From Stegostoma tigrinum (taxonomy: Eukaryota): DNA of 64,000 nt. Of this stretch, positions 22,123-64,000 are shown piece by piece. Where the stretch lies: NCBI RefSeq assembly GCF_030684315.1, contig NC_081401.1, positions 3,668,582 to 3,732,581 of the forward strand, written 5' to 3'. Both the position numbers and the translations under genes were made by a program. Under the pieces are notes generated by a model that was given only the letters and a program-made list of their open reading frames with translations, was not told the DNA's origin and searched no databases. Position 1 is the stretch's first letter. Each line of letters opens with the position of its first letter.

Positions 22123-22300
22123 ATAGATTCCCTACAGTATGGAAACAGGCATTTCGGCCCAACAAGTCCAGACTGAAACACAGAAAATCCCACCCAGATC
22201 CACCCCGCTGTAACTCACGTTATCTACACACCCTTGAACATGGTAGGCAATTTACCAAGGCTAATCGACCTAACCTGCACATCTTTGAACTGTGGGAGGA
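22123..22300 (-). mobile_element. HE1-type SINE 3' half
   Basis: Reverse complement of the SINE tail: 'ccctacagtatggaaacaggc..ggcccaacaagtcca' and 'cctaacctgcacatctttgaactgtgggagg'. Confidence 0.8.
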
Positions 22301-22984
22301 TGGTTATTGGATGCACTGTCCCGAGGACCATATCTCCCAAATAAAAGGAAGAATTCCAAAGAGCAAGAAAAGGAATAAACAAAATGGTGAAGCTGTGTGG
22401 CAGAGTGAGATAACAGAGACATCGTGAATCTACAAGCTGATTATGTTGCTTCGCCTGAACAAAGCTGCTGAAATTTGTGCTGGTAAAAACAAATTACATA
22501 ATTAAAAACACATTTTTACACAAACTGTTTTGAGACCAGTATTGAAAGGAAAGAGATATTCAAAGCTGTGAAGGAAAAGGAGAGACAAGAATTTTAGCAG
22601 TTAACACAATACTTTTAAAATGTTTTTAAAAAAATCCTCCATCAGAGACTGTCCTGAACAATTGAAACCGATGAACGTCAGTTTGAATCAATAGTTGGAG
22701 GAAGGTGAATTAATGGAATTGTTCCTCAATGAGAAGTGGTGAAAATATCTGGAAGTCCAATAAAATATGGAATTTATGGTCATTTGTTGAGAACAATAGT
22801 CTGTATATGTGATAGACGTCTTTCAGTTCACAAGAAGAGGTTACAATAATGAAAGCATATGTACAATCGACATGATAAAGAAACAGATGTGGTATGCAGG
22901 AATCATTTCAGCAAAGATCAGCAGAGCAAAACTTGCAAGTTGCAAACATTACCAGTGTTCCAGCTCAACAAGTGAGAGAAGCAG

Positions 22985-24560
22985 GGAACTCCAGGTGCCG
23001 CAAATGAGGAACAAAAGCAAATTTGTGGGAAAAGCTCAGCGGGTCTGGCAGCATCTGTGAAGGAAAAAACAGAGTTAATGTTTCGTGTCTGGTGGTCCTT
23101 CCTCAAACGTGATGGTGGCTGGGAAACATCAGTTTATATACAGAAAATAGGGAGTCGGGTGGGATTGTGAGTAAATGACAGCATCGAGCCCAAAGAGAGA
23201 GAAAGACAGTTGGACAGACAAAGGAGTTGTTAACAGTCAGGCTGGGAGGGTAGGTAGTCGTTAATGGGGACTGCTAGTGAATATCAATGGGGGTGCGTAA
23301 TAGGAGTATGTGGTAACAAGGCCTGGTGTCGGGGGTTGAGGGGCTGGGACTTGGGGAGATAAGGCCGTGAAATTATTGAACTCAATATTGAGTCTGGTGA
23401 GCTGTCGGGTCCTCAAGCAGAAAATAAAGTGTTGTTCCTACAGCTTGCGTTGGGCTTCAGTGGAAACCTGTAGCAAGCCAGAGACAGAGATGTTGGCAGG
23501 GAGCAGGGGGTACATTGAAATGACAGGCAACGGGTAGTTCAGGGACGTTTTGGCGAGCAGAAGGCTAAGTCTAGAAGGCTGCAGGGTTCCCAACGGAAAA
23601 ATGAGCTGCTGCTATTTCAGGCAGTACTAAGCTTTGCTGGAGCACTGCAACAAATCTGAAGAAGACCTACTGGCCAGAGCATACGGTGGTGGTGTTGAAG
23701 TAGCAAGTAGCAGAAAGTTCGGGGTCAGTTTTTGTACACGTAACCTAGGTGTTCTGAAAGCCATCACCCTGTGTGCACTTTTTTTCCAAAATTTAGAGGA
23801 AAACACGTTCTGAGTACAGTTTCACTGGGAAGGTATGTCTGGGGCCTTGAAGAGCGAAGAGGGAGGATGTACACATGACACCTTCTGCAGATGTGACATT
23901 TACTGCAATTGCACGGACAGTTGCTGTGAGGCTGTTGGGACGTGTTGGGAGTGAAGCAGGAATGGACAAAGGTGTCTTGGAGGGAGTGGTCATTGCGGAT
24001 GATGGACACGGGTGGGGAGAGGATGATGTGACTAGCTGTGGCATACCAGTAGAGATGGCGAAAATGTGGGCTGATGATCACTTGAATATAGATACTGTTG
24101 GGAAGTAGCTGACGGTAAAAGCGACAGTAAAGTTGTTATGGGGGGTGCAAGTTGGGGCGAAGGGAGGGATAAAAGCTGAAGAAAGCTGAGGGCCCTGACA
24201 ACTGCAGTCCTGTAAAATCCTCAATGGAGGACGCAGGTGTACATTTTGGATGCCCCTTTAGCGAAGTCCACATTATCAAAACAGAAATTGCAGAGGCAGA
24301 CAAGCTGGCAGAATGGAAAGTATGGGAATCAGTTGGTTTGTAACAGATGTCCACGGGAAGCTTCTGTCCAGAAACAGAGATGGTGAGCAAGAAAAGCGAC
24401 GGCGAGAAGTTAATAGTGAAAGTGAGAGTGGAAAAGAGCACATCTTTGTCCTTAAGAAAGTGAAATGAGTTAGAATTGTCGTCTTTCAGAGTGAGAGCAA
24501 GCTCAGCCAGGGTAATGAGGATGGTGGTGAATGGGGATGAGAGCTCTCTGAAACCATCCT
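22985..24560 (-). mobile_element. Degraded Penelope-like element (family 2) fragments
   Basis: Minus-strand DICYKPTDSH, FRHL..SHI..RNDHSLQDTFVHS and CNCSKCHIC, plus a pseudo-LTR at 22985-23110. Paralog at 57540-59190. Confidence 0.75.
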
Positions 24561-26181
24561 GATGAACGGTACCTCAGGTTTCATTGAAAATTCTGGCAGA
24601 GAAGTTTGCAATGGTGAACATACTCACTTTGAATGCCATATTTTGGAAAAACAAGCAGTGGTAACATGAATAATGGAGATGAATCAGCCAGGAAAATGAA
24701 GAAGAGATGCAAACACAGCAGCACTGGAAGAGAAATGTCTGACTAAAAGAGTGTGGGATCAATAAGATTTGCAAACAAATATTATTTTCTCCTAATTGTG
24801 GAATAATGTAAAGTTGGGCTAAAATGTAACGATGTGACATTAGTTGAGACAGATTTTATTCCAGCATTTCAAAGATGCAGTCACAAGTTGTTTTCTTCTG
24901 TAATAAAGGAGATGTCCAAGAGACAAAAAATGTGATTATGGATGGAATAATGAAATATAAAGCAGATAGGTAAAGAATTCGTGCAGCTGGCTAAATGTCG
25001 ATAGATGAGGTAGTGGTATTTGTGATGTGAAAAAATGTAGTACTTTTAGAATTGAATGAAGCAGCCAATGCCCTTTTGGCATTATAATACAATGAATGAT
25101 ATCACACGATCATCGATGAGATTCTTCTGATAATCTATCCAAACAAACAAGCAATGAGCTGACATCAACTTTGGTAAAAGTAGGCCATGTGAAGACTTCA
25201 CTACAGCCATGGCCTATTCTGTGGAAGAGAATGTGTCAAAGGGAGAGAGACACACATTCATAAAACTGAATAATTAGAGAAAAGCTGTAGAGTTGACAGC
25301 ATTATTTGAAAAGTTATAATATCTAGTAATTCCCTGCATTTAGTAAATTATTAAACATGTTCTGAACAGCTGCATTGGACAGGTAAAGTGATAACTAAGA
25401 TTGGGACGCACTGATGCTAAAGAAAAATGCATGTCAAGTTAAAATGATACATTCATTTCCCCATTTATATTGATTGCAACCTTTTAGCCCCTGACCAATT
25501 ATTCGAGGTGATGAGTCACTGTGCACCGGAAGCACCCAGTTGACTGTGATTGTCTTGCACAAAAATACATCAGACAGAAGGATCAGTGAAGATATACAAA
25601 ATGATGCTGATGCAGAAGAGAAGACGATATAATCCAAAGAACAGCTGCCTGAAACTAAGTGTTCTGGGGAACATTTAGACGAGTTTGCCCTAGTGAACAC
25701 AGAGATATGAAAAGTTTGTGAGGTCCGAGAAAGAACTGCCACAAATGTTCTGTGACCAAAGCATGGAATCCTGAAAGATGCAAGGAATGGAAGAGCATAG
25801 ATATCGCAGTTCGATTTGTCATGAAGCAGATTATAGGTACATAATAAAGTATCAGAAGCATTTGGGGCCGTGGAGGTGAGACACACACAGCGACAGTTTG
25901 ATTCACATTGGAACAAAATACACCCATTGCCACTTCAGTCGAAATATACGAGATAATCCTTCATTATTTTTTTCTCTCATTGCTCTAGATCTACTGTTTC
26001 AGTCAAACAAAAAAACAACTACCTCACGATGTTCGTTAAATGAATGTGAATAGTGTGAGTGATGTAACTAACTAATTCCCTGAAGGTTTGGTGCATTAAT
26101 AAATGTAGACTGCTTTCCATGGCTTGGACTTGGCTAATCAGAGTGTTTCAGCTCGACAGAAACCGTTCACTCTCACACAAA

Positions 26182-26251
26182 ATGAAGAAGGCTGCAAATT
26201 TGCTCGTGTAAGAGATTTACTACCCGATACTGGCATTGGTGGCTCTTCCTG
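26182..26251 (+). pseudogene. GPR139-like copy 2, coding exon 1 (nonsense codon)
   Basis: MKKAANLLV*EIYYPILALVALP followed by a phase-1 donor G|GTGAGC. TAA at 26209-26211 where the paralog has AAA. Confidence 0.9.
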
Positions 26252-26431
26252 GTGAGCCAATTTAGTTATTTTATTTATCTTTGTCAATTTATTCAGAAAT
26301 GTTTTACACACCTCTGTAGCAGGTGGATGTGTTGAGGATTTCACAGTCGAGGAGCAGGAACGATACCACTGCATCACAAGGGGACTGAATGAGGTATTAT
26401 CATCGCTTTGTGCTTACCCATGTGTCAGCAT

Positions 26432-27153
26432 TAGAACATAGAACATAGAACATAGAACAGTACAGCACAGAACAGGCCCTTCAGCCCACAATGTTGTGCC
26501 GACCATTGATCCTCATGTATGCACCCTCAAATTTCTGTGACCATATACATGTCCAGCAGTCTCTTAAATGACCCCAATGACCTTGCTTCCACAACTGCTG
26601 CTGCCAACACATTCCATGCTCTCACAACTCTCTGCGTAAAGAACCTGCCTCTGACATCCCCTCTATACTTTCCACCAACCAGCTTAAAACTATGACCACT
26701 CGTGCTAGCCATTTCTGCCCTGGGAAATAGTCTCTGGTTATCAACTCTATCTATGCCTCTCATTATCTTGTATACCTCAATTAGGTCCCCTCTCCTCCTC
26801 CTTTTCTCCAATGAAAAGAGACCGAGCTCAGTCAACCTCTCTTCATAAGATAAGCCCTCCAGTCCAGGCAGCACCCTGGTAAACCTCCTCTGAACCCTCT
26901 CCAAAGCATCCACATCTTTCCTATAATAGGGCGACCAGAACTGGACGCAGTATTCCAAGTGCGGTCTAACCAAAGTTTTACAGAGCTGCAACAAGATCTC
27001 ACGACTCTTAAACTCAATCCCCCTGTTAATGAAAGCCAAAACACCATATGCTTTCTAAACAACCCTGTCCACTTGGGTGGCCATTTTAAGGGATCTATGT
27101 ATCTGCACACCAAGATCCCTCTGTTCCTCCACGCTGCCAAGAATCCTATCCTT
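26432..27153 (-). mobile_element. Young 5'-truncated CR1 LINE inserted antisense in the copy 2 intron
   Basis: Nearly identical to 54361-55076, with a (GTTCTAT)n tail. Absent from the paralogous site at ~61035-61045. Confidence 0.96.
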
Positions 27154-27239
27154 GTCCCTGGTTATTCACACATTTGGTCAAGTAACCGATTTCTTCCACG
27201 TCAAAGTTTCATACTTAATGTTGAGAGCTCGCTGATCAA

Positions 27240-27560
27240 TGGTCACACGGTGGTTAGCATTGCTGCCTCACATTGAAAGGAACCCAGTTCAAATCCTGCC
27301 TCAGGCCACTGTTTGTGTGGCGTTTGCACCTTTTCAAAGTGCCTGTGTGGGTTTCCTCTGGCTGCCTCGATTTTCATCCAAGGAAAGGAAAAAAAACTTG
27401 CAGGTTCGGTGGATTGGCCTTGCTTAATTGTCCATCGCATCGAGGGATGTGCAGGCTCGGTGGTTCAGCGATGGTAAATGCAGGAATATGGCAAAGGGCA
27501 GGGGAGTGGATCCGGGAAAGTTCGTCTTCAAAAGGTTGATGTGGACCCGACACCGGACGG
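27240..27560 (+). mobile_element. HE1-type SINE (intronic, predates the duplication)
   Basis: tRNA-like head 'cacggtggttagcattgctgcctcaca..gttcaaatcc' and body 'gtgggtttcctctgg'. Paralog at 61130-61460. Confidence 0.85.
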
Positions 27561-27825
27561 AGTCTGTGATTGTATGAACCCTGTGTTCTCATGCCTGCTT
27601 TCATTTCATCTTGCTGGTGTTACAATAAAGTTCCTCAGTGATCCCTTGTATTTGTGGACTCATTGTTATCCCTTATAAACTGACCTCAGTGACAGTTGAC
27701 TAAAGACATTTTGCATATTGCTGATTGAATGAATCTGACTCACATTATCATATGTCAGGCGCTCTCATAATTATTATCTTGAATCAGGCATTGGCACATT
27801 ATTCACTGCTGTTTTTCTCTCACAG

Positions 27826-28721
27826 CAAACTTGGCTACAATTTGGATTATTTCACAAAGAAACTGCGGCCTTTCCAAGTGTGTCACTGTTTACACGTTGG
27901 CCATGGCAACAACAGATCTACTGGTCCTGATAAACAATGTGGTACTCTATTATATCCTCAGTTATCATTTTCCTTGGTCATTCTTGTTCCATACTCCTCT
28001 TTGCAGAGTCATTATATACCTGACTGCTGTCACTCCTGATTTATCTGTTTCGTGCGTTGTCTGCTTCACATTTGACCGATTTGTATTGATCTGCTGCCAG
28101 AAGATCCAAACCAAGTATTGCACCAGAAGAACTGCAATCAAGCTGGTGATAACCATCGCTGTTGTGATTGTCGTGAAGGACATATCAGTATTGTTTGCTT
28201 ATGAACCTGAACAAATTATAAACAAAGTGCAGTGGGGCTGCTGATCATTAGAAGCATATTTTTTTTCATCTTCTGCTGGTACAGGTTATGTCTAGTTTTA
28301 CAGCGCTTGTGTCGTTTGGATTCCCTTTTCTCTGATTATCTTATGCAATTCATTAATTATCAAATGTATTCTACTGGCTAATAGAACCCGCACTGGACTT
28401 CGGAGCTGCAAGAGTGGGAATGAAAGCGACTCAGAAATTGAGAACCGCAGAAAGTCCATCATTTTATTATTCTCCATAACAGTAAGTTTCCTTTTGCTCT
28501 GGTTGCCAGTTGCCGTGGCTTTAGGCATTACCAAACTGACAGACACCATTTATTACCGAGGGAAGTTCACTGACGCTGAAATTATTGCCAGGGAATTGGT
28601 AGATATCTTGAGGTGTTTCCGTTTTTTTCTAAACCCTTGTTTCTATGCAGCGACCCAGAGCAAATGCAGAGCTGAGCTGAAAAATATGGCAAAATATCAA
28701 TGGATTTTATTCTGGAGATAG
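27826..28721 (+). pseudogene. GPR139-like copy 2, coding exon 2 (two nonsense codons)
   Basis: Acceptor tttctctcacag|CAAAC. One frame reads ANLATIWIISQRNCGLSKC..AMATTDLL..FTFDRFVLICCQK..ENRRKSIILL..FLNPCFYAATQSK. Stops: TGA at 28242 (paralog CGA) and TAG at 28293 (paralog TGG). Confidence 0.93.
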
Positions 28722-28889
28722 GTTCGAGAGAAGTCTGCAAAATAGCTTCGGCCAAGCAAATAGTTCTGCTCGACAAACTTTTATTTACTCGTCTGTCTTT
28801 ATCAGAAAATATACTCGTTGCTGTTAAAAAGGCACACAATTCATTTCTCGGTTGATATGTTTTGGATTTCCTGTAGCACCTTTGATGTG

Positions 28890-29026
28890 AGTTCCAAAGA
28901 AGGGTCAGCGGACCAGAAATGTTATCTCTGATTTCACTTCACAGATGATGCCAAACCTGCTGAGCTTTTCCAGCAGAATTAAGTGTTTGTTTCTGATTTA
29001 CTGCATCCGCGATTCTTTCAGTTTTG
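28890..29026 (+). mobile_element. Short PLE family-2 terminal element (decayed hammerhead at its 5' edge)
   Basis: Starts agttccaaagaagggtcagcggaccagaaatgtt and is flanked by acctttgatgtg / acctttgattgt. Paralog at 62750-62886. Confidence 0.75.
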
Positions 29027-29539
29027 ACCTTTGATTGTCGGTACAATTATCTGTTTTCCTGATTCCCTGCTGAGTGTAGAAAACCTACTCCAGGAAATAT
29101 GATCCATCACGCATTCAGAGATGTAAAATGACCTGACAATATGGAATTGACCATCCATATGAAAAACAGATACTTCCATTGCAGCCATCGAGATCGAAGT
29201 GTTCTGTTTTGAAACATCAATCAAGTTTCATTCAGTACAAAGCAATGGAGTGGTCTGTCCACATGTCTTGCTCATTCTCATGACACTTAATCAGAATATT
29301 GTACGGACTGGACATGTTACAGAAGAGAGGTCATCAATGATAAAAAATAATGATCTGATTCTTCCCACACGACTGATGCCCAGTGGGTGAATCCATCCAC
29401 ACCCAGTCCATTGATGTCACACCTCAGTTCCAGTTCCCAGAGAAGAGGAGGAGAAGGGGAGAAAAGTTTAAATAGCCCTTTCCTCGCTTTCACCTGTGAT
29501 GATACAAACTCTCCGTTCACGTTGCCCTCCCACCTATTT

Positions 29540-29970
29540 TCCCGCCCACACTGAACACGCTCTGTTTCTTTCTTTCTCTCTTGTCTCCTCCTCCAAGATG
29601 CCTTTCATTTCCTCACTATTGTTCGCAGTTTTTCAATACCCGTTTCTTTTTCACACTCTCCCACCCGCATTCTCTCACTACCAGCAGTTTCTCTGCATTC
29701 TGAATGATTTCATTTTCTCCATATCTCTCCTCTCCCTGGCCCATTGTCTCTCTTCTTTCATCCTCTCCCACACTTGATCATTCTTCTGTCATTCTCTCTC
29801 CCTCTTTCTCTCTGTTACTCTTTCTCGCACTCTCATTCCTTCTTTTGCACCTTTTCCCCTATCATTTCTTCTTTCCCTTCCTTTCCATGCTCAATTCTCG
29901 AAGCTCTCATTTTCTCTGTCTCCATATCTCCCCGTCTGCTTCCCCCATCCCTTCCTCTTTCTATCACTAA
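29540..29970. repeat. Pyrimidine (CT)-rich low-complexity tract
   Basis: Seen directly. Confidence 0.85.
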
Positions 29971-38377: not shown

Positions 38378-38540
38378 TCATATGTTGTGGAACTGGATGA
38401 ACACTGAAGGCTAAGTGGCATCAGAGGAGTAGGAAAGCTGATGTTTCGGGCCGAGCCCCGAGTAGAGGAAACTTTTGAATTCACCCAGCTCTACGCCTTG
38501 TTCTCGCAAATTCTCCAGCATCAGCAGTTCCTACTAGCTC
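38378..38540. mobile_element. Short rearranged PLE family-1 pseudo-LTR remnant (inverted arm plus tail)
   Basis: 'ctggatgaacac..ctgatgtttcgggcc' followed by 'ttctccagcatcagcagttcc'. Confidence 0.6.
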
Positions 38541-39955
38541 CTGGCATCATACGCTATTTGCTGATCATACTAATACCAGTGGCACGGTACTGTTGTTACT
38601 TTTGCACCATTTCCAGACTTATCTGTGGAATGGCATGCTTTTTTTGCCCCTGAAAAATGCCTGTCGAGCTCAAATGTTTCTGACGTAAATGTTGTTGGCA
38701 TGTGTGTGACTTTTTGCATATCAATGTAATATTTCTTTCAGTAAGACCAGGCACAGGGCGAGGAAACTCCCTGAGGGCAGCTCTCACTGTGAGTTTATAA
38801 ATGTTAAATTGTCGTGAGTGTGGCCAGAAATGGACTGCGACATAAACGAGCAAAAATTTTGTTGCTGTATGGAACTCTGTGGGTGAGTGACTGTCTTGAA
38901 TCGAACAGACTTTGGAAACTATGTGTTTGCTGGTGTTCTGTCACTGTTAAATTATATTCAGTGTGGGACATCATTTTACTCTAAACCTAAGCAGATGCAG
39001 TGACTTGCTGATAGCATTTTCTGATCCTATATAATCTTATTCCTGGTGCATAATTCTAAGTATAATTGGGTGGCATGCACACTGCTTTTTCAAAATAAAC
39101 GAACAGCAGTAAACAGATATGAATAGAGATGCCAGAGATTTCTGAATACGCATGGTTGGAACTTTGCAGAATACGAACGAAGTATTAAAGTTTTATGAGT
39201 CTCAATCAATTCCACACCACTTGACTCTATCTGCACAGCATAATTACATGACAATCTCCTTCAGTTTCTCCCAAATGATCTCTTATTCTCCACGTGGTAT
39301 CAATGGCAAACCTCCTCAAGTAAATCATTAGCAGGGTGACCTCGGGACAGGTCTCAGTGAGGGGTTCTGAGTATCAATGTGGACTTGTTGGCCTGAAGCA
39401 CCTGTTTCCACCCTGTAGGGATTCGACAATGATTCTATGATAATGATTCTATTTTCTGTATTCTTTGATTTATTGTTGTCAGTTTGTTGGTGACTGTCAG
39501 ATTCAATCCAGAATGCACCACTCTCACAGGTTCTCTACGTTCAGTGTTAAAACCACAAGATAGTTCAAGGTTCACCTGATCACCACACAGAATTCCCGAA
39601 CACCGGAATAACAGAAATGACTGCTCACTGTTCCCTAATTCATATGAACGCACTGTTGTAGAATGATGTGTATACCGGATATGCACAGACAGTCGATACA
39701 ACACCATCGTTTTTCTGATTCTTTGAAGATCACAAAACAGTCTAATTCTCCAGCTGAGTCATTGAATGTTGTGTGCAGAATAATAAAACCACAGTCATCT
39801 AATAATACTTCATTCGGACTACACCATCCAATCAAACCTATTTTCCGTCAGCTTAAGAGATAATGGGAACTGCAGATGCTGGAGAATCCTAGATAATAAA
39901 GTGTGAAACTGAATGAACACAGCAGGACAAGCAGCATCTCAGGAGCACAAAGGCT

Positions 39956-39983
39956 GACGTTTCGGGCCTACACTCCACATCAG
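39956..39983 (-). ncRNA. Hammerhead motif in the inverted pseudo-LTR (core mutated)
   Basis: Minus strand CTGATGT-GGAGTGTAGGCCC-GAAACGTC; the A9 position is changed. Confidence 0.5.
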
Positions 39984-42289
39984 AGAGGGGGATGGGGTGA
40001 GGATTCTGGAATAAATCGGGAGAGAGAGGGAAGCAGACCGAAGATGGAGAGAAAAGAAGATAGGTGGAGAGGAGAGTATAGGTGGGGAAGTAGGGAGGGG
40101 ATAGGTCAGTCCAGGGAAGACGGACAGGCCAAAGAGGTGGGATGAGGTTAGAAGGTAAGAAATGGAGGTGCGGCTTGAAGTGGGAGGAAGGGATGGGTGA
40201 GAGGAAGAACAGGTTAGGGAGGCAGAGACTGGCTGGGCTGGTTGTGTGATGCAATGGGGGTAAGGGACGAACTGGGTTGGTTTTGGGATGCGCTGGGGGA
40301 AGGGGAGATTTTGAAGCTCCCACCCACAGCCTCCAACCTTATTATTCCCCAACCCGACACGGCCCGTTACTCTCTCCTTCCCAAAATCCACAACCCTGCC
40401 TGTCCTGGTCGACACATTGTCTCAGCCTGTTCCTGCCCCACCGAACTCATCTCCACCTTTCTGGACTCCATTTTCTCCCCGTTGGTCCAGGAACTCCCTA
40501 CCTACGTCCGTGACACCACCCACGCCCTCCACCTCCTCCAGAACCTCTAATTCGCTGGCCCCCAACACCTCATTTTCACGATGGACGTCCAGTTCCTATA
40601 CACCTGTATTCCACATGCAGATGGCCTCAGGGCCCTCCGCTTCTTCCTGTCCCGCAGGCCCGACCAGTCCCCCTCCACCGACACCCTCATCCGCCTAGTC
40701 GAACTCGTGGTCATCCTCATCAACTTCTCTTTCGATTCTTCCCACTTCCTACAGACAAAGGGCGTGGCCATGGGCACCCGCATGGGCCCCAGCTATGCCT
40801 GCCTCTTTGTAGGTTACGTGGTCCCTCCTCCGCACTTACACAAGCCCCAAACCCCACCACTTCCTCCGTTACATTGATGACAGTATCGGCGCTGCCTCTT
40901 GCTCCCCAGAGGAGCACGAATAGTTCATCCACTTCACCAACACCTTCCACCCCAACCGTCAGTTCACGTGGGCCATCTCCAGCACATTCCTCACCTTCCT
41001 GGACCTCTCAGTTTCCATCTCAGGCAACCAGCTTGTAACTGATGTGCACTTCAAGCCCACCAACTCCCACAGCTACCTAGAATACACCTCCTCCCACCCA
41101 CAATCCTGCAAAAATTCCATCCCCTATTCCCAATTCCTCCGCCTCTGCCGCATCTGCTCCCACGATGAGGCATTCCACACCCGCACATCCCAGATGTCCA
41201 AGTTCTTCAAGGACCATAAATTTCCCCCCACAGTGGTCGAGAAAGCCCTTGACCGCATCTCCCACATTTCCCACAACAGATCCCTCACACCCCACCCCCG
41301 CCACAACCGCCCAAAGAGGATCCCCCTCATTCTCACACATCACCCCACCAACCTCTGGATACAACGCATCATCCTCCGACACTTTCGCCATCTACAATCC
41401 GACCCCACCACCAAAGACATTTTTCCATCCCCACCCTTGTCTGCTTTCTGGCGAGACCACTCTCTCCAAGGCTCCCTTGCGCGCTCCACACTGGCCTGCA
41501 ACCCCACCACACCCGGCACCTTCCCCTGCAACCGCAGGAAATGCTACACTTGCCACCACACCTCCTCACTCACGTCTATCCAGGCCCCAAGATGACTTTC
41601 CATATTAAGCAGGGGTTCACCTGCACATCTGCCAATGTGGTTTAATGTCTCATTTGTACCCAATATGGCCTCCTCTACATTGGGGAAACCAAGTGGAGGC
41701 TTGGGGACTGCTTTGCAGAACCCCTCCGCTCGGTTTGCAATAAACAACTGCACCTCCCCGTCGCGAAACATTTCAACTCCCCCTCCCATTCTTTACATGA
41801 CATGTCCATCATAGGCCTCCTGAAGTGCCACAATGATGTCACCCGAAGGTTGCAGGAACAGCAACTCATATTCCGCTTGGGAACCCTGCAGCCCAATGGT
41901 ATCAATGTGGACTTCACCAGCTTCAAAATCTCCCCTTCCCCCACCGCATCCCAAAACCAACCCAGTTCGTCCCCTCCCCCCACTGCATCACACAACCAGC
42001 CCAGCTCTTCCCCTCCACCCACTGCATCCCAACATCAGCCCAGCCTGTCTCTGCCTCCCTAACCTGTTCTTCCTCTCACCCACCCCTTCCTCCCACCACA
42101 AGCCGCACCTCCATTTCTAACCTCCTAATCTCCTCCCACCTCGTTGACTTGTCCGTCTTCACTGCACTGACCTATCCCCTCCCTACCTCCCCACCTATAC
42201 TCTCCTCTCCACCTATCTTCTTTTCTCTGCAAATTCGGTCCGCCTCCCCCCTCCCTATTTATTCCAGAACCCTCACACCATCCCCCTCT

Positions 42290-42317
42290 CTGATGAGGGG
42301 TGTAGGCCCGAAACGTC
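42290..42317 (+). ncRNA. Hammerhead motif in the 3' pseudo-LTR
   Basis: CTGATGA-GGGGTGTAGGCCC-GAAACGTC. Confidence 0.7.
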
Positions 42318-42549
42318 AACCTTTGTGCTCCTGAGAATCTGCTTGGCCTGCTGTGTTCGTCCAGCTTCACACTTTATTATCTTCCTTCAGCTTAATGCAT
42401 TCATACATCTGTTTCAAAGGCTACAGGGACTGATCCAAGGACGATGGGATCAGGTAGCACCAGAAATTATCGAGCACGAATGAATAAGCTCATCCTTGGA
42501 ACAGTTCCTACCACCACAGAGCTATACCAAGCATAATTATTGTTCGTAA

Positions 42550-43170
42550 TTCCTTGAAGGTGAAGTGCCAGGTAAATAGAATCGTCAGGTATCTGCTTGA
42601 TATGCATGCCCTTATTGGTCAGTTCACTGAGTGTCGCGGTTGGGAGGTCATGTTACTCTGCAGAACATTGGCAAGGCTGCTTTTGGAATGCTTCATACAA
42701 TTCTGCTCTAAGATAACAAAGTGTGGTGCTGGATGAACACACGCAGGCCGAGCAGCATCTTAGGAGAAAAAAGCTGACGTTTCGCGCCTAGACCCTTCTG
42801 CTCTCCCAGCTTTCAGGAGGATGATGTGAAATTTGAAACGGTTCAGAAAAGGTATACAATCGTGTTGCCATGTTTGGAGGGTTTGAGCTACAGGGAGAGC
42901 TGAATAGTTTGGGTCCATTTTCCCTGAGGCTTCGAAGGCACAAGAGTGAGCTTACTAAGGTTCATAAAGTCATGAGGAGTTTGGATAGGGTCGATAGAAA
43001 TTTGAAGCATTAAAAACATCTGGACCGGGATATGGACAGATTGGCTCGAGATGGATGTCGTCCAAATGTTGGCAAATGACACTAGATTTATTTAGGATAC
43101 CTCGCCAGCATTGACAGGTGGGAGCAAAATGCCTGCTTCAGTGCTGTCAATCTCCATGACTGTACGACTG
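42550..43170 (+). mobile_element. CR1 3' fragment interrupted by an 86-bp PLE piece (42710-42795)
   Basis: RTLARLLLECFIQFC and ETVQKRYT remnants. The insert is flanked by TTCTGCTCT at 42701-42709 and 42796-42804. Confidence 0.75.
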
Positions 43171-52872: not shown

Positions 52873-55076
52873 AAGGAGAAGGAGAGGATTAGGCAGAATG
52901 GGAGGATATTTAATTGGGGAAGAGGAATCTATGATGCGATTAGACATGAGTTAGGAAGCATGGGCTGGGAGCAGTTGTTCCATGGTAAGGGAACTATCGA
53001 CATGTGGAGACGGTTTAAGGAACAGTTGTTGGGAGTGATGAGTAAATATGTCCCTCTGAGACAGGCAAGAACGGGTAAGATTAGGGAACCTTGGATGACG
53101 AGAGCGGTGGAGCTTCTAGTGAAAAGGAAGAAGGTAGCTTACATAAGGTGGAGGAAGCTAGGGTCAAGCTCAGCTAGAGAGGATTACATGCAGGCAAGGA
53201 AGGAGCTCAAAAATGGTCTGAGGAGAGCCAGGAGGGGGCACGAGAAAGGCTTGGCAGAAGGAATCCGGGAAAACACAAAGGCATTTTACACTTATGTGAG
53301 GAATAAGAGAATGGTCAAATAAAGAGTAGGGCCGATCAGGGATAGCATAGGGAACTTGTGTGTGGAGCCTGAGGAGGTAGGGGAAGCCCTAAATGAGTTT
53401 TTTGCTTCTGTCTTTACGAAAGAAACAAACTTTGTAGTGAATGAAACCTTTGAAGAGCAGGTGTGCATGCTGGAATGGATAGAGATAGACGAAGCTGATG
53501 TGCTGAAAATTTTGTCAAACATTAAGATTGACAAGTCGCCAGGCCCGGATCAGATTTGTCCTCGGCTGCTTTGGGAAGCGAGAAATGCAATTGCTTCGCC
53601 ACTTGCGAAGATCTTTGCATCCTCGCTTTCCACTGGAGTCGTACCTGAGGACTGGAGAGAGGCAAATGTAATTCCTCTCTTCAAGAAAGGAAATAGGGAA
53701 ATCCCCGGCAATTATAGACCGGTAAGTCTCACGTCTGTCGTCTGCAAGGTGTTAGAAAGGATTCTGAGGGATAAGATTTATGACCATCTGGAAGAGCATG
53801 GCTTGATCAAATACAGTCAACACGGCTTTGTGAGGGGTAGGTCATGCCTTACAAACCTTATTGAGTTTTTTGAGGATGTGACTAGAAAAGTTGATGAGGG
53901 TCGAGCTGTGGATGTGGTGTATATGGACTTCAGTAAGGCATTTGATAAGGTTCCCCATGGTAGGCTCATTCAGAAGGTCAGGAGGAATGGGATACAGGGG
54001 AACTTAGCTGCTTGGATACAGAATTGGCTGGCCAACAGAAGACAGCGAGTGGTAGTAGAAGGAAAATATTCTGCCTGGAAGTCAGTGGTGAGTGGAGTTT
54101 CACAGGGCTCTGTCCTTGGGCCTCTACTGTTTGTAATTTTTATTAATGACTTGGACGAGGGGATTGAAGGATGGGTCAGCAAGTTTGCAGACGACACAAC
54201 GGTCGGAGGTGTCGTTGACAGTGTAGAGGGCTGTTGTAGGCTGCAGCGGGACATTGACAGGATGCAGAGATGGGCTGAGAGGTGGCAGATGGAGTTCAAC
54301 CTGGATAAATGCGAGGTGATGCATTTTGGAAGTTCGAAAATGAAAGCTGAGTACAGGATTAAGGATAGGATTCTTGGCAGCGTGGAGGAACAGAGGGATC
54401 TTGGTGTGCAGATACATAGATCCCTTAAAATGGCCACCCAAGTGGACAGGGTTGTTAAGAAAGCATATGGTGTTTTGGCTTTCATTAACAGGGGGATTGA
54501 GTTTAAGAGTCGTGACATCTTGTTGCAGCTCTATAAAACTTTGGTTAGACCGCACTTGGAATACTGCATCCAGTTCTGGGCGCCCTATTATAGGAAAGAT
54601 GTGGATGCTTTGGAGAGGGTTCAGAGGAGGTTTACCAGGATGCTGCCTGGACTGGAGGGCTTATCTTATGAAGAGAGGTTGACTGAGCTCGGTCTCTTTT
54701 CATTGGAGAAAAGGAGGAGGAGAGGGGACCTAATTGAGGTATACAAGATAATGAGAGGCATAGATAGAGTTGATAGCCAGAGACTATTTCCCAGGGCAGA
54801 AATGGCTAGCACGAGGGGTCATAGTTTTAAGCTGTTTGGAGGAAAGTATAGAGGGGATGTCAGAGGCAGGTTCTTTACGCAGAGAGTTGTGGGAGCATCG
54901 AATGCGTTGCCAGCAGCAGTTGTGGAAGCAAGGTCATTGGGGTCATTTAAGAGACTGCTGGACATGTATATGGTCACAGAAATTTGAGGGTGCATACATG
55001 AGGATCAATGGTCGGCACAACATTGTGGGCTGAAGGGCCTGTTCTGTGCTGTACTGTTCTATGTTCTATGTTCTAT
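52873..55076 (+). mobile_element. Young 5'-truncated CR1 LINE (HER1-like)
   Basis: Continuous ORF2 frame with one stop at 53320-53322. (GTTCTAT)n tail. GTAG on both sides, at 52869-52872 and 55077-55080. Confidence 0.97.
53356..54987 (+). CDS. CR1 ORF2 reverse transcriptase (543-aa open segment of a truncated element)
   Basis: KSPGPD, PEDWREANVIPLFKKG, NYRPVSLTS, QHGF, YMDFSKAFDKVPH, QGSVLGPLLF, KFADD, RPHLEYC. Confidence 0.93.
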   Translation: MCVEPEEVGEALNEFFASVFTKETNFVVNETFEEQVCMLEWIEIDEADVLKILSNIKIDKSPGPDQICPRLLWEARNAIASPLAKIFASSLSTGVVPEDWREANVIPLFKKGNREIPGNYRPVSLTSVVCKVLERILRDKIYDHLEEHGLIKYSQHGFVRGRSCLTNLIEFFEDVTRKVDEGRAVDVVYMDFSKAFDKVPHGRLIQKVRRNGIQGNLAAWIQNWLANRRQRVVVEGKYSAWKSVVSGVSQGSVLGPLLFVIFINDLDEGIEGWVSKFADDTTVGGVVDSVEGCCRLQRDIDRMQRWAERWQMEFNLDKCEVMHFGSSKMKAEYRIKDRILGSVEEQRDLGVQIHRSLKMATQVDRVVKKAYGVLAFINRGIEFKSRDILLQLYKTLVRPHLEYCIQFWAPYYRKDVDALERVQRRFTRMLPGLEGLSYEERLTELGLFSLEKRRRRGDLIEVYKIMRGIDRVDSQRLFPRAEMASTRGHSFKLFGGKYRGDVRGRFFTQRVVGASNALPAAVVEARSLGSFKRLLDMYMVTEI

Positions 55077-56480: not shown

Positions 56481-57534
56481 TAATAATGCTTAAGGATCTA
56501 ATTTAATATGAAATTTCAATGTTGCATTCTGACAGTTTTTCACATTTTATTTTATTTGATGAGCTGTTTGAGGAACTATATTATGACCTCAGTGATATAT
56601 CTCCAAATATTACAAAAACAGCCACAAGAAATATCCACAGTATCGATATCACGAGAGCCTCACAGAATCAGTACCACTTTAGGGTCAATTCTATGGTTTG
56701 GGTCAGAAACATTGTGTGAGAAGTGTGCAATTTTGCAAAGTTGTGATATCTGCTGACCACTGTGCAGCCGTCAGTGATCTCGTTGAATCCTTATCTGGTG
56801 ATAATGAGAAGGGCTTTGGTTAAACCCCTGATGGTAGCTGGACGCACTCTCCCGCGGTCCATATCTCACAAAAAATAGGAAGAATTCCAAACAGCAAAAA
56901 GAAGAAATAAACAAAATAACGAAACAGTGTGACTGAGTGAGATAACAGAGGAATTGTGAATCTACAAGCTGATTATATTGCTTTTCCCGATCAAAGCTGC
57001 TGAAATTTGTTCTGTCTCAAAAAAGTGACACAATTACACACATTTTGACACAAAGTGTTTTTAGACCAGTGTTGAAAGGAAGTAGATATTCTAAACTGTG
57101 AGGGGAAAAGAGAGTAAAAAGTCTTAGGAGTAAACACATTCCTTTGAAATATTGAAAAAAAAAATCATCCACCAGGGATTGTCCCGACTAATGGAAACTG
57201 ATGAATGTCAGTTTGAATCATAGAGGAAGGTGAATTAAAGGACATTTTCCTTAAAGAGAAGGCTGGAAAATATCTGGAAGACCAATAAAATATGACATTT
57301 ACGTTCATTTGTCGAGAAAAAACAGTCAATGCATGTGATAGACATATTTCGGTTCATGAGAAGAGCTTCCAATAATGAAAGCGTACATGTGATCAAACTT
57401 GAGAAAGAAGCAGATATGTTCGGCCTGAATCGTTACAGCAAGGATCAGCACAGCAAAACGTGCTCGTTGTCATGATTACCTGTGTTCTAGCTAAACAAGT
57501 GAGAGGAACAATGTCTTTGTCACGTATAAAAACT

Positions 57535-59190
57535 AAAAACTAATAGAACTGCAGATGCTGTAAATTTGGAACAAAAACAAAGTTTCTGTAAAGGCTCAAC
57601 AGGCCTGGCAGCATCTGTGAAGGAGAAAACAGAGTTAATGTTTCTTTTCCGGTGACAGATCCTCAGGACTGAGGATGGCTAAGAAAACTTCAGTTTATGT
57701 GCAGAAAATAGGTAGGTCGCTGGGGGAGGGAGTAAACGATAGGATAGAGCAAAAAGAGAGAGAAAGGCAGGTGGACAGACAAAGGAGTTGATCAGGAACA
57801 GGCTGGGAGGGTAAATAGTTGTCAATGTGGACTGCTAGTGACTAACAACAGTGGGTGTGTAATGGCCGGCTACGTGGGAAGAAGGCCTGGTGTGTGGGGT
57901 TGGGGGGCTCGGAGATGGGAGAGTTTAGGCCCTAAAATTATTGATTTCAGCATTGAGTCGGAAGGGCTGTGGAGTCCCCAGGCGAAAAATGAAACCTTGT
58001 TCCTGCAGCTTGCATTGGGCTTTACTGGAAAACTGGAGCAAGCCAGAGACAGAGATGTTGGCCAGAGAGCAGGGTGCCATTGATGTGACAGGCAACGGGT
58101 AGTTCAGGGTCTTTTTTGCGAGCAGGAGGTGAAGTCTAGATGGCTACAGGGTTCTCAATGGAAAAAAAAAATGAGGCACTGACATTCCGCGAGGGCTAAG
58201 CTTTGCTGGAGCACTGCAACAAATCTGAAGCAGAGCTGTTGGCCAGACAATACTGTGGTGGTGTTGACGTGAGAAGTAGCAGAATGTTCAGGGTCAATTT
58301 TTGGAGACAGAACCGAATTATTATGAAAGCCATCACCCAGTGTGCACATCGTTTCCAAAATTTAGAGGAAACCACGTTCTGAGCACAGGCTCACCAGGAA
58401 GGTATTTCTGGGGCCTTGGAGAGTGAAGAGGGAGGATGTAAACATTACATCTTCTGCAGATGTTACATTTTCCGCAATTGCAGGGAAAGTTGTAGTGAGG
58501 CTGTGGGGATGTGTTGGGAGTGAAGCAGGAATGGACAAAAGTGTCTTGGAGGGAATAGTCATTGTGGATGATGGACACAGGTGGAGAGAGGATGATGTGA
58601 CTAGCTGTGGCATTCCACTAGCGATGGCAAAAATGGAGGCTTATAATCATGTGTATGTAGATACTGTTGGGATGGTAGCAGAGGATAAAAGGGACTCTAT
58701 TATTGTTGTGGGGGGTGCAGGTGGGGGGCAAAGGAGTGACAAAAGCTGAAGAAAGCTGAGGGCCCTGACAACCACAGTCCTGGGGAATCCTCGATTGAGA
58801 AAGAAGGTGTACATTTTGGAGGCACCCTTATCGACGTCCGCATCATCAAAACAGAAATAGCAGAGACAGAGGAGCTGGAATAATGGTAATGAAGTCCTTA
58901 CAGGAAACAGGGCGTGAGAATGTAAAGCCAAGGCAAAAGTAGGGCTCAGTTGGTTTGTAACGGATGTCAGCAGGCACTCTATCTCTCGAAACAGAGATAG
59001 TGAGCAAGAAAAGGGAGGGGTGAAAGGAATTAATGAAAATGAGAGCGGAATGGGGCACTGCTTTGTTCTTAAGAAAGTGAAAAGAGTTAAAAGCGTCGTC
59101 TTTTATGGTGAGAGCACCCTCAGCCAGAGGGATGGGGTAGGTGCTGAATGGGGATATCGAGCACTGTGAAACCATCCGGATGAACCGGTA
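57535..59190 (-). mobile_element. Degraded Penelope-like element (family 2), paralog of 22985-24560
   Basis: DIRYKPTE, ASKMYTFFLNRGFPRTVV, SLQDTFVHS, CNCGKCNIC. Confidence 0.78.
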
Positions 59191-60787
59191 CATCAGGGTT
59201 CATTGATGATTCGGGCAGAGAAGTGTGCAATGGTGAACACAAACAATTTGAATGCCATCTTTTGGAAAAAACGGACAGTGGTAACATGAAAAGCGGAGAT
59301 GAACCAGCCAGGAAAATGAAGGAGATGCAAACACAAGCAGCAGTGGAAGAGAAATATCTGACTGAAAGGGTGTTGCATCGATAGGATTTGTACACACATT
59401 TTATTTTCTCCTGATTGTGGAAGAATGAATCATTGGGGTAAAATTTAAGGATTTCGGATTCGTTCAGAGACATTTTATTCCTGCATTTCAGAGATGCAAT
59501 CACAAGTTGTTGTCTTCTGTAATAAAAGAGATCGTCAAGAGAAAAAAAATCTGATGACAGATGAAATAATGAAAAGTAAATTAGATGGGGAAAGAATTAG
59601 TGCAGCTGGCTAATTAGTTGATAGATGAGGTCGTGGTATTTGCGATGCAAGGAAATATAATATTTGTAAAATTGAATGAAGCAGCTGATACCCCATTGGT
59701 ATGATCCTCCAATGAATGATATCACAGGACCATCGATGAGGTTCTTCGTTTAATCTATCCGAACAAACAGGCAATGAGCTAACATCAACTTTGGTAAAAG
59801 TAGGCCATGCAAAGACTTCACGACAGAAGTGGCATATTCTGTGGAATCGAATGCCGCACAGGGAGAAAGAAGCACAATGATAAAACTGAATAACTTCCAG
59901 AAAAGTTGTAAAGTTTACAGCATTGCTTGAAAAGTTAGAATATGTGGTAACTCCCTGCATTTGGTAAGCCATTAAACATATTCTGAAAATCTGCAATACA
60001 CAGGCAAAGTGGTGACTAAGATTGGGAAGCACTGATTACAACGAAAAATGCATGTCAGGTTATCATGGTACAGTCATTTACCCATTTATATTGATTGTAC
60101 ACTTTTAGCCCCGACCAACTATCAGAAGTGATGAGACACTATGCATCTGAACCACCCAGTTGTTTGTTGATTTTCGTGGGCGAAATACACCAGATAGAAG
60201 GATCAATGAAGTTATACAAAACGATAAAGATGCAGAAGAGAAGGCGATATAATTCAAAGAGCAGCTGCCTGAAACTCAGTGCTCGTGGCAACATTGAGAC
60301 CAGTTTGGCCTGGTGAACGTAGAGATATGAAAAGGTTGGTAGGTCCCAGAAAGAACTGTCACAGATGTTCTGAAACTAATTCTCAAAGACACAAGAAATG
60401 GAAGAGCAGAGATATCACAGTTGGATTTGGTGTGAAGCAGATTATAGATACATAATATTCCATCAGAAGCATTTGTGGCCGCGGAGGTCAAACACACTTC
60501 GTGACAGTTTGATTGACATCAGAAGAAAAATTTCCATTGCCAATTCAGTTGAGAGAGACCAGATATTCCTTCACTGATTTTTTTTCTCATTTCTACAGAT
60601 CTGCTGTTTCACTCAAACAAAAAATTACCTAACTATGTTTGTTAAATGACTGTGAATAATGTGAGTGATGTAACTGATTGATTCCCTGAAGGTTTGCTGC
60701 TTAAATAAATGTAGACTTCTTTCTTAGTCTTGGATGTGGCTGATCAGAGTGTTTCAGCTCGACAGAAACCACTCACTCTCACACAAA

Positions 60788-60857
60788 ATGGAGAAGGCTG
60801 CAATTTTGCTCGTGAAAGAGATTTACTACCCCATACTTGCATTGGTTGCTCTTCCTG
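60788..60857 (+). pseudogene. GPR139-like copy 3, coding exon 1 (intact)
   Basis: MEKAAILLVKEIYYPILALVALP followed by G|GTGAGT. Differs from copy 2 exon 1 at 6 of 70 nt. Confidence 0.9.
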
Positions 60858-61129
60858 GTGAGTCGATTTAGTTTTAAACCGAATTATCTCAATCAACTTA
60901 TTCAGAAATGTTTTACACACCTCTGTAGCAGGTGGATTTGATCAGGATTTCTCAGTTGAGGTTCAGCTACAATGCCAATGCCTCACAAGACGGCCTAATG
61001 AGGCATTATCATCTAAATGTGTTGATCCCAATGTCACTACTGTCCCTGGTTCTTCGCACGTTGAGTCAAATCACCGATTTCTTCCATGTCAACGTTTCAT
61101 AACTTATTTTGAAAGCTAGCTGACCAATG

Positions 61130-61460
61130 GGAGCTCAGTGGTTGGCACTGCTGCCTCGCCGTGAAAGGAATCCGATCGAAATCCTGCCTCATGCCACTGA
61201 TGGTGTAGAGTTTGCACATTACCTCCGTGCCTGTGTGGGTTTCCTCTGGCTGCTTCGATTTCCAACCATGGAAAGAAAAAATAAACTTGCAGGTGAGGTG
61301 GATTGGTCACGCTTAATTGTCCATAGTGTCTAGGGATGTGCAGGCTCGGTGGTTTAGCTATGGTAAATGCAGGGTTACGGCAAAGGGCAGGGGAGTGGAT
61401 CTGGGCAAGATGGTCACTGGAGTGTTGGTGTGGACAAGATGCTGGATGGAGTCTGTGATT
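61130..61460 (+). mobile_element. HE1-type SINE (intronic)
   Basis: 'gctcagtggttggcactgctgcctc', 'gagtttgcacatt', 'aggtggattggtcacgc'. Paralog of 27240-27560. Confidence 0.85.
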
Positions 61461-61710
61461 ATATTAACGTTGCATTCTAATATCTGATTTCATTTCATCT
61501 TGCTGGTGTTACAATAAAGTCCCTCAGTGATCCCTTGTATCTGTGAGCTCATTGTTATCACTTTTCAACTGATCTCAGTGACAGTTGACTAAAAAAACAT
61601 TTCGCAGACTTCTGATTGAATGAAACTGACTCGGATTATCGTATTATTCATGATTATTATCCTGAATCAGGCATTGGTACATTATTCACTGTTTTTTTTT
61701 TCTCTCATAG

Positions 61711-62602
61711 CAAACTTGGCTACAATTTGTATTATTTCACAAAGAAAATGCGGCCTTTCCAAGTGTGTCACTGTTTACATGGTGACCATGGCAACAACAG
61801 ATCTACTGGCCCTGATCAACAATGTAGTACTCTATTACATCTTCAGTTATCATTTTCCTTGGTCATTCATGTCCCTTACTCCTCTTTGCAGAGTCAACAG
61901 TCAGTGACTGCTGTCACTCCTGATTTATCTGTTTGGTGCGTTGTCTGCTTCACATTTGACTGATTTGTCCTGATCTGCTGCCAGAAGATCCAAGCAAAGT
62001 ATTGTTCCAGAAGAACTGCAATCAAACCGGTATTAACTATCACGTTTGTGATTGTTCTGATGGAAATACCTGTATTGTATGCTTATGAACCTGAACAAAT
62101 TATAAACAAAGTGCAGTGGGGCTGCCGATCAAGAGAAGCGTTTTTCTCATCTTCTGCAGGCACAGGATATGTCTGGTTTCACAGCGCCTGTGTCGTTTGG
62201 ATACCCTTTTCTCTGATTGTCTTGTGCAATTCATTAATTATCAAATGTATCCTACTGGCAAATAGAATCCACACTGGGCTTTGGAGCTGCCAGGGCGGGA
62301 ATGAATGTGACTCAGAAATGGAGAACCGCAGAAAATCCATCATTTTATTATTCTCCATAACAGTAAGTTTCTTTTTGCTCTGGTTACCACTTTCCATGGC
62401 GTTCGGCATTACCAAACTGACAGGCACCAATTATTACCAAGGAAAGATCACAGACCCTGACTTGATCGCCATGGAATCGGCAGAAATGTTGACATATTTT
62501 AGCTGCTTTCTAAACCCTTGTATTCATGCAGCGACTCAGAGTAAATTCAGAGCGGAGCTGATAAAAATGGCCAAATGTCAATGGATTATATTCTGGAGAT
62601 AG
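61711..62602 (+). pseudogene. GPR139-like copy 3, coding exon 2 (frameshift and nonsense codon)
   Basis: Acceptor ttctctcatag|CAAAC. ANLATICIISQRKCGLSKCVTVYMVTMATTDLL. Net 1-nt deletion at ~61897-61905. DRF has become D*F (TGA at 61961-61963). The frame is then open to ..FLNPCIHAATQSKFRAEL..WR*. Confidence 0.93.
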
Positions 62603-62749
62603 GTTTGACAGAAGTCTGCAAAATAGCTTCAGCCAAACAATTGGTTCTGATCAACAAAGTTTTATTTTCTCGTCTGTCTTTATCAAAAAATATACACGAT
62701 TCATTTCTATGTTTATGTGTTTTGGATTTCCTATTACACATTTGATGTG

Positions 62750-62886
62750 AATTCTGAGGAAGGGTCAGCAGCCCGGAAATGTTAAGTCTGATTTCTCTTC
62801 ACAGATGGTGCCAGGCCTGCTGAGATTTTCCAGCAGAATGATGTGTTTGTTTCTGATTTACACCATCAGTGGTTCTTTCAGTTTTT
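62750..62886 (+). mobile_element. Short PLE family-2 terminal element beginning at the hammerhead motif
   Basis: CTGAGGA-A-GGGTCAGCAGCCC-GGAAATGTT at 62754-62783. TTTGATGTG on both sides, at 62741-62749 and 62890-62898. Confidence 0.78.
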
Positions 62887-63648
62887 ACCTTTGATGTGGG
62901 TGCAGTTTTCTTTTTGCCTGATTCCCTGCTGAGTGTAGAAAACCTACTCCAGGAAATATGACGTATTATGCACTCAGATACGTAAAATGACCTGACGATA
63001 TGGATTTGAGCATTCTTATGAAAACAGATATTTCCATTGCAGCCAACAAGCTCCAAGGCTTCTGTTTTGAAACATTAATCAAGTTTCATTTAGTACAAAG
63101 CAATGGAGTGGTCTGTCCACATGTTTTGTTCATTCTCATGGCACTGGTACAGAATATTGCACAGGGTGGACATGTTACGGAAGAAAGGTCATCAATGAAA
63201 ACAAATCTGACTCTCTCTACACAAGTCATGTCCTGTGGAAGAAACAGTCCACAGCCATCGATGTCATATTTCATTTCATCGGTCATTACCATTTCTTACA
63301 TTTGGAGTTTCCTGCTCATGTAAACTCCAGTCTCGTGCCAATCATGAACTACAATCTTCAGAAATATGAAGTTTGTTAAGTGATGGAGAAAGCCAGCATG
63401 TTTGGCAGCATCTGTGAAGACAGGAAATGAATTTCATTTTTCGAGTGCAGTGACACTTCTTCAGAATGGTGAAGGAGCTGTATTGAGTTTTCTCTGAAGC
63501 AGTTGTGAAGTGATTGCGAAATTTGACACGACTCTTTTCACACGACCCTGTGGGTGAAACCGTCCACACCCAGTCCATCGATGCCACAGTTATGTTCCAC
63601 TCCCAAGGAAACAGGAGGAGAAGGGGCAGAAGGTTTAAATAACCCTGT

Positions 63649-63874
63649 TAATAAAATGTGAGGCTGGATGAACACAGCAGGCCAAGCAGCATCTCAGGAG
63701 CACAAAAGCTGACGTTTCGAGCCTCGACCCTTCATCAGAGAGCTCTCTGATGAAGGGTCTAGGCCCGAAACGTCAGCTTTTGTGCTCCTGAGATGCTGCT
63801 TGGCCTGCTGTGTTCATCCAGCCTCACATTTTATTATCTTGGAATTCTCCAGCATCTGCAGTTCCCATTATCTC
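63649..63874. mobile_element. 226-bp palindromic PLE family-1 insertion
   Basis: Arms 63649-63742 and 63743-63836 (2 mismatches, no loop) plus a 38-nt tail. TSD TTAAATAACCCTGT at 63635-63648 and 63875-63888. Confidence 0.96.
63747..63774 (+). ncRNA. Minimal hammerhead ribozyme motif (a mirror copy lies on the - strand at 63711-63738)
   Basis: CTGATGA-A-GGGTC-TA-GGCCC-GAAAC-GTC. Confidence 0.75.
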
Positions 63875-64000
63875 TTAAATAACCCTGTCCTCACTTTCAC
63901 CTCAGATGACACAAACTCTGTGTTCACATTGCCCTCCCACATATTGTCACACTCACACCTGAACACACTCTGTTACTTTCTTTCTCTCCTCCTCCTCCAA

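Follow-up and report, generated by a model that had tools for sequence, protein, structure and literature searches.

A 226-nt insertion with a loopless palindrome of truncated Penelope-like element ends in Stegostoma tigrinum

We analysed a 64,000-nt window of the Stegostoma tigrinum genome (NC_081401.1, positions 3,668,582 to 3,732,581), which carries a cluster of rhodopsin-family 7TM receptor genes (61602–62602, 27783–28721 and 1108–1956). The first two of these genes lie in a segmental duplication (about 22299–29600 versus 56830–64000) and are interrupted by stops or a frameshift. The window also holds an open 554-aa LINE RT frame (53323–54987; RVT_1), which we take to be CR1-like by resemblance, an inverted 718-bp 3′ fragment 98% identical to that LINE (26436–27153), and older, more diverged Penelope-like coding remains detected by tblastn (12915–13978, 23561–24564 and 57931–59154). 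Scanning for bacterial promoters and terminators, a scan type irrelevant for this DNA, gave no matches. A palindromic insertion of 226 nt (63635–63888 including its TSD) lies ∼1 kb on the downstream side of a 7TM receptor gene that has been disrupted by a frameshift and a stop. Its features, and the corresponding site in the paralogous half of the duplication, are as follows.

63635–63648, + strand: left copy of the TSD, 14 bp, starting TTAA; target single-copy at the paralogous site
63649–63742, − strand: tail-less inverted arm, pLTR end; 90/94 identical to the copy at 11471–11564
63709–63740, − strand: minimal hammerhead motif of the left arm, from motif inspection and folding; core 63738–63732
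63737–63748, no strand: head-to-head junction AGAGAG/CTCTCT, compared with parent copies
63743–63836, + strand: sense arm, 5′-truncated pLTR of the Penelope-like family; arm plus tail 127/129 identical to the copy at 11436–11564
63745–63776, + strand: minimal hammerhead motif of the sense arm, from folding and the description available in PMC4209133; no Rfam match
63837–63874, + strand: 38-nt tail, on one arm only; also in the copies at 11436, 16033–16163 and 39857
63875–63888, + strand: right copy of the TSD, identical to the left copy
29468–29481, + strand: unoccupied target in the segmental-duplication paralog; single copy, co-linear flanks

The insertion consists of two 94-bp mirror arms with a spacer of 0 nt, followed by the 38-nt tail. 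Positions 63649–63742 pair with 63743–63836 over all 94 bp with only two mismatches (63725 C against 63760 T, and 63720 A against 63765 C), both of which are differences of the 63649–63742 arm, whose outer end coincides with the pLTR/tail border. The CTGATGA cores sit 4 nt off the centre, at 63747 on the + strand and at 63738 on the − strand, and none of 200 shuffled sequences folded as well as the palindrome (z = −25). Upstream of 63743, the parent copies read CCCC, and the junction is therefore not a parental self-complementary word. The 14-bp TSD, TTAAATAACCCTGT, is exact at both ends (63635–63648 and 63875–63888) and begins with TTAAAT, marking an AT-rich target; the chance probability of an exact 14-mer is ∼7e-9 per placement, or 5e-6 over 800 placements. 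Arm pairing thus bore out the original prediction of loopless 94-bp arms with two mismatches around this centre, as did the tail and the flanking repeats for its 38-nt tail and perfect 14-bp TSD.

In the paralog, the target TTAAATAGCCCTTT at 29468–29481 is present once and is alike to the TSD at 12/14 positions, with flanks that are co-linear on both sides (82/103 and 97/111 identical, 80–87%). The preserved empty site that had been proposed holds in so far as the paralog has one target copy, but this is the paralog's own site and not an empty allele of the locus. We confirmed that the palindrome is real. To regard it as an assembly or read fold-back artefact, one could point out that none of the contig pieces listed spans the stretch of the locus that was compared with the runs, which included only 25 nt of the left arm, and that the best-matching runs may be the source sample itself (four runs, 82–83% of sampled words). 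Against this stand the exact TSD, the one-sided tail, the two arm differences and the co-linear flanks, and raw reads of another sample that show the same centre with a genuine conversion pattern (see below). As the flank resumes co-linear with the paralog after the duplicated 14-mer and the one-sided tail, a fold-back artefact is hardly credible, and we rejected it. Two differences at 108 paired sites amount to 0.9% per lineage (95% CI 0.11–3.3%). At the mutation rate of 7e-10 given for the epaulette shark in the available text of PMC10587355, this translates into an age of 1.6–47 million generations if both differences arose after insertion, and into a far younger age if the copying that made the insertion introduced them. 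'Young', as the insertion had been called, is therefore correct relative to the duplication, which it postdates, but only in this relative sense.

From its sequence, the insertion is a severely truncated pLTR end of an EN+ Penelope-like element (PLE). Longer copies in the window run upstream into broken frames, and carpet-shark proteins are the relatives that match these frames best (83% and 77%). Pfam matched 0/3 and then 0/4 of the PLE fragments from the broken RT/EN frames of the window, and the identity of the parent was therefore taken from these relatives: P0002 and P0009, which align across 40317–41948, both match GIY-YIG above the cut-off, and P0007 matches RVT_1 above the cut-off, placing an RT before a C-terminal GIY-YIG in the parent. 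Furthermore, parsing found a minimal type I hammerhead in the pLTR of both arms and of four other window copies, and the insertion combines an inverted 5′-truncated copy and a one-sided tail of the 30–40-nt kind (38 nt) with a TSD at an AT-rich target (14 bp; 13/14 in a sibling insertion described below). The linker contains a C-x4-C-x2-C motif, which suggests possible membership of the Neptune clade (compare the accessible text of PMC8557442). Judged by read depth under an assumed genome size, the family comprises at least 24,000–36,000 copies.

Anatomy, TSD and the RT/GIY-YIG parent all support a PLE origin, an inverted pLTR and a product of retrotransposition, as originally predicted. The classification as MITE-like did not survive. 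MITEs are derivatives of class II elements, with TIRs that abut the TSD on both sides and ends shared with a DNA transposon. Here, the 38-nt tail separates the right arm from a TSD of 14 bp, and the ends are shared with a retroelement encoding RT and GIY-YIG, so a MITE was rejected.

The hammerhead motif on the + strand comprises the CTGATGA core (63747–53), a 4-bp helix II (63755–66) with an extra A, the GAAAC–GTC elements, a palindromic ACGT replacing helix III, and a helix I of 2 bp; its predicted cut is after C63774 (GUC/A). In the left-arm motif, helix II is weaker (−0.9 kcal/mol by folding). Rfam returned no hammerhead matches at the gathering score, and the call rests on inspection against the description of minimal hammerheads in the available text of PMC4209133. 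Such ribozymes need a same-strand partner and cut weakly, as far as stated in the accessible parts of PMC4209133 and PMC6765202. When read-through RNA of either strand was folded, a hairpin of −186 kcal/mol formed instead of the ribozyme, and the pair probability of helix II in the + transcript dropped to ∼1e-15. Both ribozymes are thus predicted to be buried in the hairpin and inactive here, as a by-product. The back-to-back hammerheads that had been noticed are indeed present as sequence on opposite strands, but with helix II buried we rejected a working ribozyme pair. By eye, GAG at the junction (63740–63746 versus 63775–63779) could lengthen helix I, giving 5 bp and a bulge of 2 nt, which is moot while the long hairpin forms.

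The window contains a second insertion of the same plan, with the following parts.

39843–42395, no strand: sibling insertion; TSD 14 bp (13/14), with a TTAA start in the orientation of the tail
39857–40318, − strand: tail-bearing arm, 462 bp
about 40315–42381, + strand: tail-less arm, ∼2.07 kb, with broken RT and GIY-YIG frames

In this sibling of ∼2.5 kb, the tail-less arm is the longer one, and it ends within 2 nt of the border at which the 63649–63742 arm ends. The junction holds AGCT, and the short arm ends in AGCT. With extra sequence in the long arm and the tail in the short one, each arm was likely copied separately from RNA; given that the tail-less arm is the longer, plain folding back cannot have made either arm from the other. 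As far as one case allows, the arrangement favours two separate primings over a simple fold-back. Among other copies, one on the − strand (42707–42798) is short and starts at the equivalent of 63752, and in run X3, 196 contigs have a long stretch of unlike sequence ahead of 63752, which may be a hot spot of truncation. At 38393–38540, an older inverted arm is followed by a sense remnant and the tail, as if the middle had been lost asymmetrically. This copy resembles an inverted insertion without its middle and would lend some colour to the idea that our palindrome began as a longer inverted insertion and later collapsed by symmetric central deletion, through cruciform processing. We consider such a history very improbable: the loss at 38393–38540 was asymmetric and destroyed the palindrome, and a base-exact symmetric loss that recurs at one point would be unlikely.

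Sequencing reads indicated that the centre recurs. Run X13 consists of raw bisulfite reads from another sample (1938 Mb, ∼1% of the run, ∼0.5x under an assumed genome size), a depth at which a single locus should give less than one read. Depth on the arm peaked near 15,700, and reads in register continued to the left of the centre (101 at 63736–63738 and 50 at 63725), with no indels near the centre among those listed. For an assumed genome of 3–4.5 Gb, this corresponds to ∼70–230 same-centre copies, or 0.3–0.6% of the family depth. The parental A at 63725 was carried by 43/50 of the X13 reads and by 76 X3 contigs, which therefore represent other copies; the count of 76 may be blurred by up to 57 X3 records that can be placed at two points of the window. 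In organism B (run X5), depth across the centre was ∼20, and run X11, with 45 records and none left of the centre, was uninformative. Reads crossing the centre showed conversion of one kind (C>T or G>A) on both sides, the pattern expected of genuine DNA that was palindromic before conversion.

Other centres were found as well. Besides 15 listed opposite-strand joints there were 244 more, and 13 of the 15 carried X13 reads (1259 reads); centres therefore vary. Bisulfite conversion shifts and blurs joint coordinates: a simulated read centred on GG/CC reproduced the observed joint 63764/63766, whereas a simulated AG/CT centre gave 63777/63789 against the observed 63777/63778. Globally, the data point to head-to-head joining at many points, with AGAGAG/CTCTCT as a modest, likely hot spot, and the palindrome pattern likely recurs many times in this genome. 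A further opposite-strand joint, 63838/63875, links the pLTR/tail border to the end of the tail in 16 X3 contigs, the arrangement that end-to-start chaining of inverted-type units would produce.

That many copies share one internal junction could also reflect a self-copying, non-autonomous palindromic family, in which a founder was transcribed and re-inserted by PLE proteins in a MITE-like manner. The 50–101 same-centre reads at ∼0.5x, the 76 X3 contigs and the low X5 depth would agree with this, as would the statement in the available text of PMC3846280 that pLTRs suffice in trans. We nevertheless rate it as improbable, because same-centre copies make up such a small share of the family depth and theirs is one centre among many. 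Related families in other animals have different centres, the hairpin, at −186 kcal/mol, is ill suited as a template and buries the ribozyme, and nothing in this reading accounts for a left end that falls precisely on the second RT start. The lack of the 63725 variant in 43/50 reads is not decisive, as the variant could be a private mutation. Of the recurrent family suggested originally, the recurrence of the exact centre (50–101 reads) stood, while self-copying found no support in view of the other centres and the reads lacking the variant.

Similar palindromes were also found in metagenomes. Our pattern, two core 11-mers ≤30 nt apart, forces short spacers and retrieved 42 loci, of which seven were dropped as locus repeats (six by BLAST, L028 by its identical spacer), leaving 35 distinct ones. 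Twelve of the 35 were testable, with a hammerhead core, arms ≥45 nt and room on both sides, and half of these (6/12) had a clear 11–16-bp TSD beyond a one-sided tail of 36–56 nt (L003, 12/12; L007, 16/16; L014, 14/14; L016, 11/11; L030, 13/14; L035, 14/14). The TSD was marginal in two (L031 and L038), and four had none. Loops measured 1–23 nt, and the loci had family-specific sequences and differing centres. The shark family was not among the 42 loci, matches being ≤39 nt long and located over the ribozyme core. L003, L016, L031, L033 and L038 all belong to a single non-shark hammerhead family, and each of the five has its own centre, which is consistent with centres being built anew at each insertion.

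The explanation we judge probable is a single insertion event with two RT reactions primed from opposite target strands, in which a pLTR end with its tail meets a tail-less copy. At an AT-rich TTAA target, the PLE protein would nick each strand, with 14 nt between the two nicks. One nick would then prime at the distal RT start, at the end of the tail, and the other at the proximal start, at the pLTR/tail border. Both cDNAs would extend slightly beyond the hammerhead and halt short of the C-rich tract, and their 3′ ends would be joined through AG/CT pairing or as blunt ends, followed by gap filling. We predict that such a product is dead on arrival, without a function of its own. In line with this scheme, both the 63635 insertion and its sibling have targets that start with TTAA and TSDs of 14 bp. 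A PLE protein of the anole prefers AT-rich DNA and both cleaves and extends the two strands; it is a predicted dimer, and two RT start sites bound its tail (available text of PMC11167929). The layout of the sibling fits this behaviour in its two-strand cutting, AT-rich target and two RT starts, and by analogy two-strand priming may lead to inverted products. The weakest step is that both reactions stop at one base, as the parent has no self-complementary word there. The exact centre is also commoner than random stopping predicts, which counts against two-site priming, and a self-copying subfamily would give the same excess.

In the published reading, as available in PMC3846280, palindromes at inverted PLE junctions arise by self-priming on an antisense template, and the accessible text of PMC8557442 explains the tail by endonuclease resolution. 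Accordingly, a tail-primed cDNA or antisense template might have folded back and copied itself, with the endonuclease resolving the product at the pLTR/tail border. This would explain the equal arms at once, and frequent joints do lie at the self-complementary words GGCC (63762) and AGCT (63775), the latter also ending the short arm of the sibling; the same words would serve the end-to-end annealing of two cDNAs equally well. We regard this route as unlikely, though less so than self-copying, because the parent reads CCCC/CTCTCT, so that several untemplated bases would be needed, and because folding back cannot build a sibling with a longer tail-less arm.

In run X3, seven of the 12 family junctions listed (with 71 more) terminate at 63775, the base directly following the predicted cut. 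Six of the 63775 junctions come from tail ends at 63872–63875 plus 1–6 letters; in four rows, these letters agree with the GATA consensus that follows the tail in X5. Orientation is absent from the table, and a same-strand junction fits best, since 63775 is fixed while the other side varies. Such junctions would mean that RT, having run off a 5′ end generated by the ribozyme, jumped to a new start, hinting at hammerhead cleavage in vivo. The joints 63764/63775 (44 reads) and 63777/63778 (45 reads) point the same way. Alternatively, AGCT could be a hot spot through its self-complementarity alone. For the anole, the available text of PMC11167929 reports no RNA-seq reads ending at the cut and ribozyme cleavage that is dispensable in vitro. 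We therefore propose only tentatively, and with somewhat less than even confidence, that a dimer primes both strands from the starts that bound the tail and that the ribozyme cuts in vivo, producing junctions from the first post-cut base, namely tail ends joined to 63775 and palindromes centred on AGCT just after it. If true, thousands of junctions in one genome would form a fossil record from which the PLE insertion cycle could be read directly.

Several known systems resemble parts of this picture. In L1 twin priming, two primers at a staggered nick produce a 5′ inversion with microhomology. There, each segment derives from a different part of one RNA, whereas here it is the same end twice, with two defined starts. 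Non-LTR retrozymes, as described in the accessible text of bioRxiv 10.64898/2026.07.22.740005, are likewise short, non-coding, pLTR-derived and equipped with a type I hammerhead, but they form head-to-tail arrays with same-strand ribozymes. The tandem-repeat scan of the window revealed no head-to-tail hammerhead arrays, and the head-to-head layout with hammerheads on opposite strands led us to reject a retrozyme. Our literature search, covering mainly openly accessible papers, found nothing on shark PLE palindromes, PLE twin priming or ribozyme-cut junctions. The origin of PLE inverted ends and tails, and hammerhead cutting in vivo, are stated to be open in the available parts of PMC8557442, PMC4209133 and PMC11167929.

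The core, the extra base before helix II and the palindromic ACGU replacing helix III are those of PLE minimal hammerheads in the accessible text of PMC4209133. Opposite-strand pairs described there lie ∼100–700 bp apart; ours, in contrast, have cores 8 nt apart in mirror arrangement and a helix I of 2 bp. With anole Poseidon PAc in vitro, the system shares two tail-bounding RT starts, an AT-rich target and cutting and extension of both strands, although inverted products are not derived in the available text of that study (PMC11167929). The closest likeness is to EN+ PLE insertions as the available parts of PMC3846280 and PMC8557442 present them, with an inverted 5′-truncated copy joined head-to-head, a palindrome at the junction, a 30–40-nt tail at one end, a TSD and a hammerhead in the pLTR. 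Rotifer PLE palindromes are 18–38-bp junction features inside larger copies (accessible text of both), whereas here there is no ORF and no spacer, only 94 + 94 + 38 nt, in a very high-copy family. The value of the locus lies in being a clean minimal specimen, and it belongs to a family whose tens of thousands of copies include a sibling of diagnostic value as well as junctions that fall on the predicted cut. Many spacer-less palindromes of ∼190 bp in one genome also bear on palindrome stability and are candidate sources of double-stranded RNA. As a single locus it is ordinary for its class: the known PLE insertion pattern in its minimal, shortest form.
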